Source: a virus (lineage: Duplodnaviria; Heunggongvirae; Uroviricota; Caudoviricetes). From it: a stretch of 42,392 bases of DNA. The stretch is from IMG/VR virus record IMGVR_UViG_2778261252_000011. One strand, given 5' to 3'. Position 1 is the stretch's first letter, and each line of letters starts with the position of its first letter. A program made the position numbers and the translations under genes. The notes beneath the pieces were generated by a model. The model was given only the letters and a program-made list of their open reading frames with translations, did not search any database and was not told where the DNA came from. Positions 7,458 to 36,600 of this stretch are shown one piece after another.

Positions 7458-7765
7458 CTTATCTCTCCCCTTAACGCCGGGTGGCGGAACTAACTGCTGC
7501 ACTGCAAAATTTGAATCCCGCCGTCATGTTCATACGCCTCGGGCTGGCTACTTAACCCCTTACCACTGCCTGGTAACTCGAAGTATTGCCCGGCGTTCTG
7601 TGGGGCGGGGTGGGTGGTATGCTGGAACTATAGGTAATGCCTAATTGATTGTCAATAGGCTATGCCTAATGTTTTGAGCGTAACCTAATAGGTGATGGCG
7701 ACAGCAGAAAGTGATGGGGGGGTTAAATAACGGAATCCAGGAGTTTTCCGTCAGACCATATAAGT

Positions 7766-10748: not shown

Positions 10749-11510
10749 ATGGAGACTGTTTTTGACGCACTGAAAGCAATGGGAAAAGCCACATCCATAG
10801 AACTTGCTGCTCGACTTGATATCAGTCGTGAAGAAGTGCTGAACGAACTATGGGAACTGAAAAAGGCTGGTTGTGTTGATAAAAGCGCGTACACCTGGCG
10901 TGTGGCTGATAACAACGTTCAGCAGGAACAGCCAGCGCAGGTAGAACTGCTGGAAGAAACCACCACAGCAACAGTAGCGAAAATCTCAGAGTGCGATTTA
11001 ACCGCGACGATTGAACAACGCGGACCACAAACGGCTGATGAGCTGGCTACATTGTTTGGTACCACATCACGCAAAGTGGCTTCAACGCTGGCAATGGCAA
11101 TCAGCAAAGGTCGTCTGATTCGCGTAAATCAGGGCGGTAAATTTCGTTACTGCATACCGGGCGATAATTTACCAGCAGAGCCGAAAGCAGCATCGGTAGC
11201 GGAAACTGATGGTAAGGCCTTTCCTCAGACCGCAGGTGTTGCGTTACCAGTACAGGAGGCTGCAACACAGGAAGATATTAAAACAGAAACTGTGGCGGAC
11301 ATTGTGCAGTCGCTGCCATCGTTTACTGAAACGCGAGCGGATGACCTGGTTTTACCATCACTGCATATGGCAAACCGCGAACTGCGTCGGGCGAAAAATC
11401 ATGTCCAGAAGTGGGAGTGTGTCTGCGCCGCGCTGCGTGAGTTGAACAAGCACAGGGATATTGTACGACAGATTACTGATTCTTCCCGCCATGTTGCATC
11501 GGAAAAGTGA
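10749..11510 (+). CDS. ydaW: YdaW-like protein, apparently full length (about 253 aa); winged-helix-like N-terminus
   Basis: Start chosen at METVFDALK (ATG 10749), clear of the ydaV stop; an alternative upstream ATG at 10698 overlaps ydaV. Confidence 0.6.
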
Positions 11511-11525
11511 TTGCCGGAGGCACCT

Positions 11526-11948
11526 ATGGCAAAAGTATTTACACCAGAAGAGCGGGAAAAAATTAAAGGGCAGGTTGTTGAACTTGTACGTCTGAGCGGT
11601 CGCGAGACGTTACGGCAACTGGAAGCCAAGACAGGTGCGACAAGATATCTGATGAGTGTTCTCGCCAGTGAGCTGGTTGCCAGTGGCGATGTATACAACT
11701 CTGGTTACGGGTTATTCCCGTCTGAACAGGCGCGTAAAGACTGGCAAAACGCCCGCAAAAAACTATCGAGGGCAAAGGTGAAGAAACCTGCTGTAGTTGA
11801 TCCGGACCTTATCTGGTCATTACCAGACGGAGAAATACGCCGCTATGACAGGCGTCTGAATATAATCTGTCGCGAGTGCCGGAAGAGCGAAGTCATGCAG
11901 CGTGTACTGGCGTTCTATCAGGGTAATTTTCAGGATGTGCTGTTGTGA
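11526..11948 (+). CDS. Hypothetical protein (140 aa), winged-helix-like N-terminus
   Basis: ORF with GGAGG 7 nt upstream of ATG 11526; not present in my recollection of K-12 Rac. Confidence 0.5.
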   Translation: MAKVFTPEEREKIKGQVVELVRLSGRETLRQLEAKTGATRYLMSVLASELVASGDVYNSGYGLFPSEQARKDWQNARKKLSRAKVKKPAVVDPDLIWSLPDGEIRRYDRRLNIICRECRKSEVMQRVLAFYQGNFQDVLL

Positions 11949-12110
11949 GCCAAATTAACAATCAGGGAACTGCGTGAACTGAAAGAGAAATCATAATCCA
12001 AATCTGAATAATTAAATTTAGCACTGTAAATAAAATTTAATCCTTAACCGGAGGGGGGGGGCTGCACCCTCAAAATATTAGGAGGCGGCCCGAAAGGGCG
12101 GTAATGAAAA

Positions 12111-12614
12111 ATGACTGAATTAACCAAAAAGCAATTAATCGAAGAAGCTAAATTAAAAATAGCGATTGAGAAATGCCACCCCAATTCAGGGATGGCACGG
12201 GTAGAGGGCGAATTATTCAAAATTGCTCTGGCATCGCTGGAAGCAGAGCCAGTTGGTGATTTTTATGAATACAAACCGGATGACTGGTATCAGCGTTCGG
12301 CTGGAGATAAAGCGCCAAAATGGACGCCACCCTATGCCGTTTTTCCAGCGCCCGTAGTGCCGGAAGAAATGGATTTGCTTACATGCCATCTCGATGGTGT
12401 AACTGAAACATATGCTGAGGGATGGAACGCTTGCCGCGCTGCCCTGCTTCAGGGCAAAGGGGAGCCCGGGAAACAAGTTCGCGAATTGACAATGCTGGTT
12501 AAACAATTGGTTAGTCAACTGAAGAAAGCGAAACCGGGCTGCAAATTGCCGGATAAAGTGATGGACTACCTGGAGCGAAGCGGACTTATAAGCGTGGAGG
12601 ATGTTTTACGATGA
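12111..12614 (+). CDS. Hypothetical protein (167 aa)
   Basis: ORF MTELTKKQLIEEAKLK...; preceded by a G9 tract and a small GAAA hairpin; no family recognised. Confidence 0.55.
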   Translation: MTELTKKQLIEEAKLKIAIEKCHPNSGMARVEGELFKIALASLEAEPVGDFYEYKPDDWYQRSAGDKAPKWTPPYAVFPAPVVPEEMDLLTCHLDGVTETYAEGWNACRAALLQGKGEPGKQVRELTMLVKQLVSQLKKAKPGCKLPDKVMDYLERSGLISVEDVLR

Positions 12615-12694
12615 CCTGGCCTGAAGCATTCACAACGGTAGGAATTGCGATGGCGGTGGCGCTGGTGGTGTATTCGATTTGCCGCTGGGGTTGA
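12611..12694 (+). CDS. Putative 27-aa hydrophobic micropeptide, translationally coupled (ATGA overlap) to the upstream gene
   Basis: Hand translation MTWPEAFTTVGIAMAVALVVYSICRWG; single predicted transmembrane helix; followed by a terminator hairpin. Confidence 0.3.
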   Translation: MTWPEAFTTVGIAMAVALVVYSICRWG

Positions 12695-12704
12695 TAATAC
12701 TAAA

Positions 12705-12728
12705 TAACCAGCCCTTATGGGGCTGGCT
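12705..12728. terminator. Bidirectional terminator-like hairpin between convergent genes
   Basis: Stem CCAGCCC / GGGCTGG with a 5-nt loop; T-rich flank on the minus strand. Confidence 0.45.
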
Positions 12729-12734
12729 AATCAT

Positions 12735-13508
12735 TTAGAACTGTTCATTGCCATCGAGGTTAGGTAGCATAATTTTTTCAATCAAGGCGAGAGCCTTTTT
12801 GTCCCGGTCAGCGAAGTATTTCGGGGCATATTGCGGCAACCAAATATTGTTAAAATGTTCTTTGAAATCTGCTAAATATTCATTTGGGTACAGCCTTGCA
12901 GGGTATACGCGACCATCGGGATATTCATGGTCATAGGTAGGGAATGTTTTGGGTTCTACGTTTCTATTATCTCTTAACCATTGTGAAAATACTCTTCCTT
13001 GTGAAATGTCAGGAACCATTTTTTCTGGGAGTGTGTACCCTGCTTGTTCAAGAGGTGCAACCAAGTTGAATGTCAGTTCATTAAGAATAGAAAAGTGCGT
13101 GTGAGGAATTCTACTACGATTAACCATGTACCGTTTTAAATGTACAGGCATTTCTGCTGTAGTTCTTTCCCCTGACATCCATTCACGAACCCATCTTGAA
13201 ACCTGGACTGCAAATTTGGGCGATAGCCACTGCGCTAGATTAATAGCGATGTCAGGATGCACCCATGTCCCTTGGTTTTCAGGTCTTCCACCTTTAAATG
13301 ATTGAATTAACTCCGATATGGGAATTCCCATATCGCGTGATAATTCGTCAAAAAACTCTTGAGTAGTTTTGAGTCTAGTGTAATCAGAGAGCAGTTTGCC
13401 CGCAGTTCTACACATTGATGTGGCGTTTATGTAACCATCTTTGGCACGTAAATGTATTATTTCGCCGTCAATTTCACGAGAAATCAAAGATAATTGAAAG
13501 GATGTCAT
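12735..13508 (-). CDS. KilA-N domain protein (257 aa), opposite-strand moron
   Basis: N-terminal segment IHLRAKDGYINATSMCRTAGK... reads as a KilA-N/APSES-type domain; GAGGAA Shine-Dalgarno; transcribed against the flanking operons. Confidence 0.75.
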   Translation of the reverse strand: MTSFQLSLISREIDGEIIHLRAKDGYINATSMCRTAGKLLSDYTRLKTTQEFFDELSRDMGIPISELIQSFKGGRPENQGTWVHPDIAINLAQWLSPKFAVQVSRWVREWMSGERTTAEMPVHLKRYMVNRSRIPHTHFSILNELTFNLVAPLEQAGYTLPEKMVPDISQGRVFSQWLRDNRNVEPKTFPTYDHEYPDGRVYPARLYPNEYLADFKEHFNNIWLPQYAPKYFADRDKKALALIEKIMLPNLDGNEQF

Positions 13509-17241: not shown

Positions 17242-17317
<76 letters not shown>

Positions 17318-17320
17318 TAT

Positions 17321-17395
<75 letters not shown>

Positions 17396-30169: not shown

Positions 30170-30565
30170 ATGATCACTTACGTGACCTGTGATGACGTTG
30201 ATAATGCGTTTGGGAACGCCTGGACGAGTGAGAACGCTAAAAATAAAGCTGTTTTAATGGCTAATGCCTGGCTTAATGGCTTCAACCTGAAAATTAACCC
30301 ATCCCGTATTCCGGAAGAGGTAAAACTTGCGGGAGCATATGCAGCCAGAATTGCCTCATTCGGTAAGTTGTTTCAGCAGAAAAATGATTCTGGCGTTGTT
30401 ATCAGTAAAGCCGTGTCGGCTGACGGGGTCAGTGTATCGAAATCATTTTCTGAGTTGCCAGCAAACAGCACTGCATTGCTTGAACCCGATTTACAGCTTG
30501 CGATAGCACTGCTGAAACCGTACGGACTTAGTCGCTCACAAGTCAGGGTTGTGAGGGGGGGATAA
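30170..30565 (+). CDS. Head-tail connector / head completion protein (131 aa)
   Basis: Position and size within the head-tail joining block; no specific motif recognised. Confidence 0.45.
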   Translation: MITYVTCDDVDNAFGNAWTSENAKNKAVLMANAWLNGFNLKINPSRIPEEVKLAGAYAARIASFGKLFQQKNDSGVVISKAVSADGVSVSKSFSELPANSTALLEPDLQLAIALLKPYGLSRSQVRVVRGG

Positions 30566-33688: not shown

Positions 33689-36600
33689 ATGGCAGAGCAA
33701 ACCTCGCGTCTCGCAATAATTATTGATAGCACTGGAGCAAAAAATAATGCTGACAATCTGACCTCCTCATTAGTCAAAATGACGCAGGCCGGGGAAACTG
33801 CTGCAAATAGCGCAGGGAAAGTGACTAAGGCAACAGAAGATGAGAAGAACGCGCTCGCAAAATTAAAAGCAGCTATTGATCCAGTTGGTGCCGCAATTGA
33901 TACTGTCGGTCGACGCTATTCTGAATTAAAGAAATTTTTCGATAAAGGGCTTATTGATAAAGAAGAATATGAATTTCTTGTCCGTAAACTTAATGAAACC
34001 ACAGAGGAATTGAGCGGGGTTGCGCAAGCGCAGAGAGAAGCCGAGAAGGCCGGAAAACTTGCTGCCGCCCAGCAGGAATCGCAGGCTCAGGCCTTTCAAA
34101 GAATGCTGGACAAGATCGACCCTCTGGTTGCGGCGCTAAGAAATCTTGAACAACAGCAGGATGAACTTAATGCTGCGTTTGCATCCGGGAAAATAAATGG
34201 TTCTCAGTTTGAGAATTATAGCCGAAAAATACAGGAAACACGGCGAGAGCTTACCGGAGAGGCTCAGGCAGAGCGAGAAGCAGCAAAAGCGCATGATGAA
34301 CAGGTTGCTGCTTTGCAACGTCTGATTGCTCAACTTGACCCTGTCGGAACTGCTTTTAATCGTCTGGTAGAACAACAGAAACAGCTCAATGAAGCAAAAG
34401 CTAAGGGGATGCTCTCTCCTGAAATGTATGAGGAACTTTCTGGAAAACTTCGTGCTATGCGGAGTGAGCTTGAGGTTACTCAATCTCAATTAAGCAAAAC
34501 CGGAATGTCGGCAAAACAAACGGCTTTTGCTATGCGCATGTTGCCTGCACAAATGACGGATATTGTTGTTGGGTTGTCCACTGGTCAGTCGCCTTTTATG
34601 GTGTTAATGCAGCAGGGCGGCCAGCTAAAAGATATGTTCGGTGGGATTGGCCCGGCGATCAAAGGTGTTGGTTCTTATGTGCTGGGATTAATTAATCCTT
34701 TTACCCTGGCCGCAGCAGCCGTTGGCGTCTTAGGGCTGGCTTACTATAAAGGCTCTCAGGAGCAGGACGAATTTAATAAATCTCTTATTCTTACCGGAAA
34801 TCAGTTGGGGACAACCAGCGGGCAATTGGCCGATATAGCTCAACGTGCCGGGAATGCGGCTGATTCGACAACTGGCGCTGCGGCGGCAGTATTAAACCAG
34901 CTTGTGCGTTCGGGAAAGGTAGCGAGCAGTTCGCTGGAGCAAGTGACGACAGCGATAGTAAAAACGAGCGAAGTAACAGGAATATCAACCGAACAACTGG
35001 TTAATGACTTCAATGAAATTGCAAAGGATCCTGTCAGTGCCATATCAAAACTTAATGATCAGTACCATTTTCTGACAATTGCGACTTATAACCAGATTAA
35101 GGCGCTACAGGATGAAGGGAACCAGCAGGAGGCCGCCCGCATTGCGACAGAAGCATACTCATCCTCAATGATCCAGCGCACCAACCAGATTAAAGAAAAT
35201 CTTGGTTATCTTGAGACTGCATGGAAAGCTGTCGCAGACTCCGCAAAATGGGCATGGGATTCCATGCTGGATATTGGCCGTGAGGCCTCCCTTGATCAAA
35301 AAATCTCAGATGTTCTCCGTCAAATTGATGAAATAGAAAAAAATACCCGACCCGGAGTTTTCGGGTTAGGTGGCATTGGAGATGGCGGAGCTCAAAATAA
35401 AAGGCTGGCACGATTAAAGCAGCAATTGGGCGTACTTCAAGCAGAAAAAATTGCTCAGGACGTACTAAATTCATCAATAAACGATTACAACAAGCGACAA
35501 CAGGAAGGAATTGAACTCAGACAGAGAGCAGATGCCTTTTCAAAACAATATCAGACCCGGGAGCAGCAGAGAGCTAGTGAACTTGCAAAACTGGAAAAAC
35601 TAAAGAGTCAGTATTCAAAGGAAGAATATAATAATCTTATCGCTCAAATAAATGAGCGTTATAAAGATCCAAAGCAACCAAAGGCGAAAGGTTATTCGGA
35701 TGATGCTGCCCAACGAATGATTGATCATCTGAATCAACAGAATGCGTTACTAAGTTCACAAACTGAATTAACCGTTAAATTAAGTTCCTCTGAACAGGAA
35801 CTGGTTAAGTGGCGTCAGCAGATTGCCGACCTGGAGTCACGACCGTCATCGAAATTAACCAAGGATCAGAAATCGCTTCTCTTACACCGGGAAGAAATAA
35901 CCGCGTTGATGGAGAAAAATGTTGCGATTGAAAAAAATAACAGGCTAATCAAGGAATCCGCCGAAATAGCTGCATGGCGTGATTCATTGCAGGCTTCGAT
36001 TGATAATCGTCAACAGGGGTATGATATTCAGATTGCTGGTTATGGGGTTGGCGATAAAAATCAGCAACGCCAGCAGGAATTACTGCGGATTGAACGTGAA
36101 TATAACAATCAGCGTCTGCAACTTGAACGTGACTATGCAGATAAATCCCGTGGGATGTCAAATCATGTTTTTCAGGAGAAAATGCAGGCTCTGAATGATG
36201 CTCTGGAACGAGAAAAAGAAATTGTCAGACAGAAAAACGAGCAGCTCGATATTCAGGCAGGAGACTGGGTTAGTGGTGCCTCCCAGGGATTCAATAACTG
36301 GCTGGATGACACTAAGGATATCAGTGAGCAGATAAAATCAACCACGACTCAGATGTTTGATGGAATGACCGATGCGCTGGGTGATTTTGTCACGACAGGC
36401 AAGGCAAATTTTCGTTCTTTCGCTACTTCCGTGATTTCGGATCTTAGTCGAATAGCATTAAAGGCTTCAATTACTCGGATTTTCGACAGCATTAGTAACA
36501 GTTCTTCGGGGGGGATTTTAGGAACTATCGGGAGTGCTATTAGTAAATTTATTCCGAATGCAAAGGGCGGTGTTTATGAGTCTCCGTCATTGAACACGTA

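Follow-up and report, generated by a model that had tools for sequence, protein, structure and literature searches.

The run of nine G residues at positions 12053 to 12061 of the window, by which we mean the whole 42,392-nt stretch of viral DNA analysed here, lies in the loop of a hairpin within a leader of about 110 nt that many lambdoid phages and prophages share. The length of the run differs between prophages that are otherwise nearly identical. We consider that the tract is probably a nearly neutral hot spot of slippage, located in a loop that tolerates length changes within this conserved, mobile leader with its putative split ribosome-binding site, and not a promoter switch. The length polymorphism, the position of the tract within the shared module, the conserved geometry of Shine-Dalgarno (SD) sequence, hairpin and AUG, and the absence of promoter or terminator matches in scans of 11400-12800 were observed directly; read-through transcription, the function of the split site, and the near-neutrality of tract length are inferred. 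If this explanation is correct, a long homopolymer that truly varies in length is insufficient to call a phase-variation switch, and the location of the tract decides. We also regard the module of about 110 nt as a more useful result than the tract itself.

The proposed mechanism would work as follows. The module would act as a portable gene-junction and translation-initiation cassette of many Escherichia, Shigella, and Citrobacter lambdoid prophages, in which a GAAA-loop hairpin may bridge an over-long gap of 22-27 nt between SD and AUG and so create a 'split' ribosome-binding site. Transcripts reading through from the early rightward operon would cover the gene starting at 12111, and its translation would begin from this split site. 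The G9 run would be a slippage-prone homopolymer present in a minority of lineages, where it takes the place of the hairpin 1 loop GGGATTT, and it would gain and lose single G residues through replication slippage. Because the tract lies in a hairpin loop, lengths from G7 to G9 are presumably tolerated with little or no effect on expression.

Setting and elements of the leader

The DNA analysed is that of a Rac-like lambdoid E. coli prophage, of which a near-twin adjoins ttcA in strain VE-V10-F (99.997% over 31 kb). Its early rightward genes lie on the plus strand in the order ydaS, ydaT, O-like, DnaC-like, DUF1627, and DUF977/LygF, and in the identical prophage all genes from the cro-like ydaS through the 12111 gene share one strand. 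The DUF977/LygF/Ren-like gene (11511-11948, plus strand; Pfam DUF977, E = 2e-28; phrog_142; PGAP and phage annotations concur) is the last one ahead of an intergenic gap of 162 bp (11949-12110). Beyond the gap is a gene of 167 aa (12111-12614, plus strand) that belongs to phrog_660 and is without a Pfam family; its ATG at 12111 is also the start chosen by PGAP in the identical prophage. This is the final plus-strand gene before a convergent KilA-N gene, placed by the gene layout at 12735-13508 on the minus strand, and between the two lies a terminator-like hairpin on the minus strand (12705-12729) with a 10-bp stem followed by a T-rich tail. A terminator scan of 11400-12800 returned no terminator-like site in 11949-12110 on either strand. 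Since no plus-strand terminator follows the upstream gene, read-through from the early operon would be sufficient for expression of the 12111 gene. An open reading frame on the minus strand at 12044-12220 was set aside as merely mechanical, as it appears in no annotation.

Several other features of the prophage were recorded. Genes for tRNA-Thr(TGT) (17242-17317) and tRNA-Gly(TCC) (17321-17395) lie between the Q-like region and the lysis genes of the window, and the VE-V10-F prophage carries an IS1A element between its integrase and excisionase genes (L001:8707-9404). The plus strand of the window holds further G7 runs at 7716-7722, 30555-30561, and 36508-36514, the first of which, by offset from the identical prophage, we take to lie in the region corresponding to racR-ydaS.

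Direct reading of the sequence recovered every element that the first-pass annotation had described in the leader: a TTAACC hexamer (12044-12049), the nine-G run (12053-12061), an A/T-rich stretch CAAAATATT (12071-12079), AGGAGG (12080-12085) followed by a GAAA-loop hairpin (12086-12101) ahead of the start codon, and a mini-ORF of four codons running from ATG 12104 to TGA 12118 across the start of the gene. Comparison with other phages places these elements in a longer plus-strand arrangement. It begins with CTGAATAATTAA (12004-12021), which on reading of the sequence provides stops in three frames (TGA 12005, TAA 12009, and TAA 12013); in other phages the upstream ORF terminates within this stop cassette. 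CTGAATAATTAA sits in a weak AT-rich hairpin, CTGAAT/ATTTAG, with a fold of just -2.0 kcal/mol, in which one pair alternates between G-U and G-C (36 versus 27 sequences in the alignment of module copies). The core, AATCCTTAACCGGAGGG (12039-12055), is nearly invariant in the BLAST-derived alignment and occurs once in the window; it holds TTAACC together with UCCU (12041-12044), which is complementary to the AGGA of the SD. Hairpin 1, GAGGG [loop] CCCTC (12051-12071), has an almost invariant stem, with 98% of cells paired across 66 copies, and the G tract fills its loop and the end of its 5' arm. Folded in isolation, hairpin 1 gives -7.2 kcal/mol for the consensus and -8.8 to -10.1 kcal/mol for the G7-G9 alleles. 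The SD-like AGGAGG is near-invariant among module copies and stands 25 nt before the ATG, and hairpin 2 (CGGCCC GAAA GGGCGG; 12086-12101) is located wholly between SD and AUG. Pairing of hairpin 2 in the window comprises C86-G101, a G87/G100 mismatch, and then GCCC/GGGC; the consensus is CCGCCC GAAA GGGCGG.

Taken singly, some of these features are not exceptional. Of 100 shuffled versions of the window that preserve dinucleotide content, 19 contain a G9 run, which is thus unexceptional on its own. Positions 12040-12125 do not fold more stably than shuffled sequence (z = -0.42), so that claims about structure are comparative throughout. It is because AGGAGG, the GAAA hairpin, and the TTAACC core are kept in 66 copies, and because the G tract is polymorphic in length, that these features rise above chance.

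Other roles for parts of the leader were considered and dropped. The mini-ORF (ATG AAA AAT GAC TGA; 12104-12118, plus strand) is not conserved as an ORF, and in relatives it shares the frame of the gene (L029), extends further (L065 and L082), or is missing; we judge it an apparently incidental by-product of the conserved TAATGAAA spacer rather than a meaningful upstream reading frame. The G tract is intergenic, which removes a coding frameshift from consideration. An intrinsic terminator was rejected because the hairpins run into AAAATATT and TAATGAAA with no U tract. A search of 11700-12400 against Rfam 15 gave three weak chance matches (E >= 0.24), all of them outside the leader. A boxB/nut site was also discarded, as no boxA was seen by eye and the position is wrong.

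The shared module and its ribosome-binding site

BLAST and pattern searches identified positions ~12004-12113 as one copy of a module of ~110 nt that occurs at 80-100% identity across many lambdoid phages and prophages. The first half of its consensus consists of the three-frame stop CTGAATAATTAA, ATTTAG, an AT-rich stretch, the AATCCTTAACC core, and hairpin 1 (GGAGGG ATTTCTGCA CCCTC); the second half continues with AGAACATC, AGGAGG, hairpin 2, 6-11 nt, and the ATG. For alignment and pairing counts, 66 distinct copies were collected. An 88-nt leader query had matches in 1192 of 5426 complete E. coli genomes, with most of the query matched in 930, and about a fifth of complete E. coli genomes carry the module. 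Among species representatives, which were scanned with a gapped pattern whose mostly chance matches were sorted from true copies, it was present only in E. coli, Shigella flexneri, and Citrobacter braakii. The genes flanking the module on either side vary from copy to copy, and it precedes at least eight unrelated downstream gene families, with N-termini such as MRKFK..., MTELT..., MTTLF / MVTLF / MKHYL..., MLTLK..., MGITK..., and MQDIK.... At the position of the G9 run, most of the 66 copies read GGGATTT(C), of which GGGATTT is 7 nt long, the same length as G7; on this basis the tract would be a derived ATTT-to-GGGG replacement in the loop, followed by slippage to G8 and G9. No published description of the module was found in full-text searches for the core and hairpin 2 sequence strings, and the literature on conserved intergenic elements in lambdoid phages yielded general mosaicism papers that do not describe it.

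Individual copies show how the module meets its surroundings. In the Shigella flexneri and E. coli species representatives (L159 and L166), the module is intact through hairpin 2 and is then followed by unrelated sequence (…GGGCGGGGAGCAGTCACAC), such that the mosaic junction coincides exactly with the module edge. In the window itself, the first 55 nt of the gap (11949-12003) look like the 3' end (…AAAATCCAGAACTGAATAA) of coding sequences that in other phages stand directly before the module, which suggests a recombination or deletion scar and not the original spacer. A phage recorded from Actinobacillus pleuropneumoniae ('Actinobacillus phage vB_Apl-pPE4', PP818812.1), a host assignment that looks odd, also carries the E. 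coli-type module (87.7% identity) beside Ead/Ea22-like genes.

The 25-nt gap between AGGAGG and ATG in the window exceeds the functional linear distance (above about 13 nt), and the gap is 22-27 nt over module copies from at least eight downstream families. Hairpin 2 occupies 16 nt and leaves 9 nt to the AUG in the window and 6-11 nt over the family; a gap of 22-27 nt is too long for a linear SD and would shorten to a normal spacing once the 16-nt hairpin is stacked out. In silico, the isolated hairpin folds with -11.2 kcal/mol in the window and -15.5 kcal/mol in the consensus. Over the 66 copies, 97.5% of hairpin 2 cells are paired. One-sided changes account for 24 cells, 23 of which are C-to-U changes giving U-G, while the remaining one is a C-to-U change in the 3' arm giving G-U; there is also one compensatory change (CCACCC/GGGTGG). 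The 5' arm thus varies almost solely by C-to-U, and the resulting U-G pairs are acceptable only in plus-strand RNA. The covariation score for these 66 very similar sequences is not above the shuffle control. Because formal covariation is weak among copies so alike, it is geometry that argues for membership of the split-site class, short of proof. Judged from its sequence, the leader is most likely a putative split ribosome-binding site of the T4 gene 38/25 type, and the module looks like a temperate-phage counterpart of such a site.

Tract-length alleles and rival explanations

The first-pass annotation had proposed slipped-strand phase variation through a homopolymer in a promoter spacer. Of this proposal, the hypermutable length stands, with G7, G8, and G9 found between the same flanks, whereas the promoter-spacer reading is not supported, scans having found no credible promoter across the tract. 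Tract length is not invariant across relatives: G7, G8, and G9 were present in 10, 85, and 12 complete E. coli genomes, respectively. These genomes were queried with sequences of 87-90 nt, comprising 40-nt flanks and G7, G8, G9, or G10, and exact full-length matches numbered 10, 85, 10, and 0 records, respectively, so that G10 was not found in this background among complete E. coli genomes. The total of 12 for G9 includes two records at 98.9% over the same length (DP051 and H177), and the single substitution in the DP051 record falls within the loop. The same alleles were recovered from IMG/VR contigs (six G7, seven G8, and one G9) and from a metagenome scan that yielded only five loci (one G7, three G8, and one G9). 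Three phage isolates match 500 nt of a 501-nt query, and in the one that was aligned, phage 666R9, the sole gap falls in the tract and makes it G8. In every inspected IMG/VR and phage copy, the 170 nt around the tract are identical, while neighbouring kilobases differ by 0.3-6%. In an alignment of 1.85 kb of flanking sequence, contigs with G7 (L008), G8 (L145), and G9 (L015) are 0-1 nt apart, and more distant clades each hold more than one tract allele. As alleles differ both between near-identical contigs and within distant clades, tract lengths have shifted repeatedly and faster than point substitutions accumulate. These observations support the conclusion that the tract is hypermutable and behaves as a slipped-strand hot spot.

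Three module backgrounds have poly-G at this loop position (G6-8, G7-9, and G8-9 with a possible G11), and they precede two different genes. The second background, GGA-G(6-8)-CACCCTC, precedes a small DUF7167 gene and includes G6 (L181), G7 (L177), and G8 (L136). The third, GGA-G(8-9)-AGGCGCCCTC, occurs in STEC prophages of O157, O145, O103, O45, and O121, likewise upstream of the DUF7167 gene, and comprises 15 G9 records, two G8 records, and a single record longer by 2 nt, possibly G11; the Sanger-era genome of O103:H2 strain 12009 has G9 at the same loop position in this background (L180:1201-1303). Both of these backgrounds are therefore length-polymorphic, and a further copy (L179) also has poly-G at the hairpin 1 loop upstream of the DUF7167 gene. 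The allele could have spread by recombination within the module, it could mark a mutational attractor, or it could have been selected; persistence in three backgrounds could likewise reflect selection for the tract and not neutrality.

That the length differences are sequencing or assembly errors at a homopolymer, with no real alleles behind them, is an explanation to which we give hardly any credence. Many of the complete genomes are long-read assemblies, which are prone to G/C homopolymer miscalls, and two of the metagenome contigs have coverage of only 1-2x. However, sister and re-sequenced isolates are concordant: all three ST2747 isolates have G7, strains 222 and 103 both have G8, KN13-4 and KN12-1 both have G9, as do RM12581 and RM13514, and ETEC1717, 1718 and 1730 have equal tract length. 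This concordance favours heritable alleles over random miscalls. The same three alleles appear in IMG contigs from isolate genomes, the three phages with 500/501-nt matches were isolated independently and would all be G8, the Sanger-era genome carries G9 in a related module, and the distribution is symmetric about G8, when long-read error would lean to deletion. Transcriptional phase variation, in which the tract would space a -35 TTAACC from a -10 (CAAAAT or AATATT) so that slippage toggles the 12111 gene in the lysogen, appears only marginally less improbable. It gains from the differences in tract length among near-identical prophages, from three lineage substitutions that raise the A/T content downstream (CAGAACATC to CAAAATATT), and from a moron-like layout with a 162-bp gap before the 12111 gene and a terminator after it. 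Nevertheless, a promoter scan returned no sigma-70 promoter in 11400-12800, and a relaxed hexamer search allowing spacers of 15-21 bp in G6-G10 variants gave best pairs of 8-of-12. The sole hexamer pair spanning the tract, TTAACC/CAAAAT, has 8/12 matches, and its spacer measures 19 bp with G7, 20 bp with the modal G8, and 21 bp with G9; a spacer of 17-18 bp requires G5 or G6, neither of which was seen among about 130 copies of this background. The -10-like CAAAAT is restricted to this lineage, with related copies reading CAGAAC. TTAACC falls within the block of highest conservation in the module and is kept in copies that lack both the tract and the -10, and it is apparently conserved as part of an RNA-level core and not as a -35. 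Moreover, a promoter at CAAAAT would strip the transcript of its conserved ribosome-binding site, because a start some 7 nt on (near 12083) would fall inside AGGAGG.

Two other explanations deserve somewhat more weight, although we regard each as unlikely. According to the one, tract length sets the register of hairpin 1 and thereby whether UCCU pairs with the true SD (12080-83) or with a decoy GGAGG, and translation would change stepwise, heritably, and reversibly. Folding of 12000-12150 with G5 to G12 in ViennaRNA predicts that the minimum free energy (MFE) fold flips between G7 and G8, from UCCU:AGGA(SD) at G5-G7 to UCCUU:GGAGG at the 5' end of the tract at G8-G9, which makes an RNA-level effect conceivable. 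The RNAalifold consensus also joins UCCU (12041-12044) to the AGGA of the SD, poly-G alleles of varying length are maintained in the three module backgrounds, and a lineage-specific C-to-G change on the 5' side of hairpin 2 (GCCGCCC to GCGGCCC), which weakens that hairpin, permits GCGGCCC (12085-12091) to form an alternative 7-bp helix with GGGCUGC (12059-12065) at the 3' end of the tract; this helix is the MFE pairing of 12040-12125. On the other hand, the predicted unpaired probability of the SD ranges non-monotonically over just 0.32-0.40 from G5 to G12 while that of the AUG is constant at 0.61, the paired columns are invariant so that nothing covaries, the leader fold is no better than shuffles, and most module copies function without a tract. 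Given the small ensemble difference, an RNA-level rheostat is possible but unlikely. The fuller proposal, in which the tract would be a heritable and reversible translational rheostat in a mobile lambdoid leader, adjusting the expression of early accessory genes (phrog_660 and DUF7167) across prophage populations, seems to us more doubtful still. If true, it would make the tract a contingency locus that acts at the RNA level in E. coli phages and explain the persistence of poly-G in three backgrounds, and tuning of translation by the tract would make it one of the rare cases of simple-sequence contingency among E. coli prophages. The other explanation, about as unlikely as tuning through hairpin register, concerns the module as a whole, which may be conserved chiefly at the DNA level, either as a recombination linker for lambdoid cassettes or as a site bound by a protein of the phage or host, with the hairpins and SD secondary. 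One sequence of ~110 nt connects unrelated upstream and downstream genes at 80-100% identity, junctions fall exactly at module edges (as in the two representatives that diverge directly after hairpin 2), and 170 bp of intergenic sequence are identical between prophages whose flanks diverge by 2-6%. Yet three observations point to constraint on the mRNA: in hairpin 2, C-to-U changes are biased to one strand and one change is compensatory, and the hairpin keeps its distance from the AUG whichever gene follows. A DNA-level role and a role in translation are compatible, and the module is a candidate recombination linker at mosaic boundaries in addition to being a putative split site.

Comparison with known systems

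Promoter-spacer homopolymers that mediate phase variation include the poly-G/C tracts in the porA and opc promoters of Neisseria and the poly-C tracts in the fim promoters of Bordetella. The tract described here resembles these in being a G homopolymer of 7-9 nt upstream of a gene, with single-unit changes between near-identical strains. It differs in that no credible -35/-10 pair brackets it, the spacers being 19-21 bp, in that each flanking hexamer is either lineage-specific or kept for some other reason, and in that the downstream gene belongs to the early region of a phage and does not encode a surface antigen. In the boxB/nut hairpins of phage lambda, a GNRA-like loop is recognised by N protein. 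Hairpin 2 is similar to boxB in its short G+C stem, its GAAA (GNRA-type) loop, and its location in an early lambdoid transcript. Unlike boxB, however, it has no boxA-like sequence upstream in the aligned region, as judged by eye, its distance from the early promoter is about 3.7 kb and it stands directly between SD and start codon, its loop changes to GGCA, TAAA, or AAAA in some copies, and the leader is without an Rfam match.

The closest likeness is to the split ribosome-binding sites of phage T4 genes 38 and 25 (Nivinskas et al. 1999; Malys and Nivinskas 2009; reviewed in PMC3014915), for which it was shown experimentally that the distance from SD to AUG is reduced from 22 nt to 5 in gene 38 and from 27 nt to 11 in gene 25 (PMC3014915). 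The lambdoid leader differs from these in several respects: its sequence is unrelated, it is a mobile cassette before at least eight unrelated genes of temperate lambdoid phages, and it has an extra upstream hairpin, a three-frame stop, and an anti-SD-like UCCU. It shares with the T4 sites a strong SD at 22-27 nt from the AUG, a stable hairpin, here predicted, that lies wholly between the two, an effective spacing that would be shortened (here to 6-11 nt), and the retention of this arrangement among related phages.
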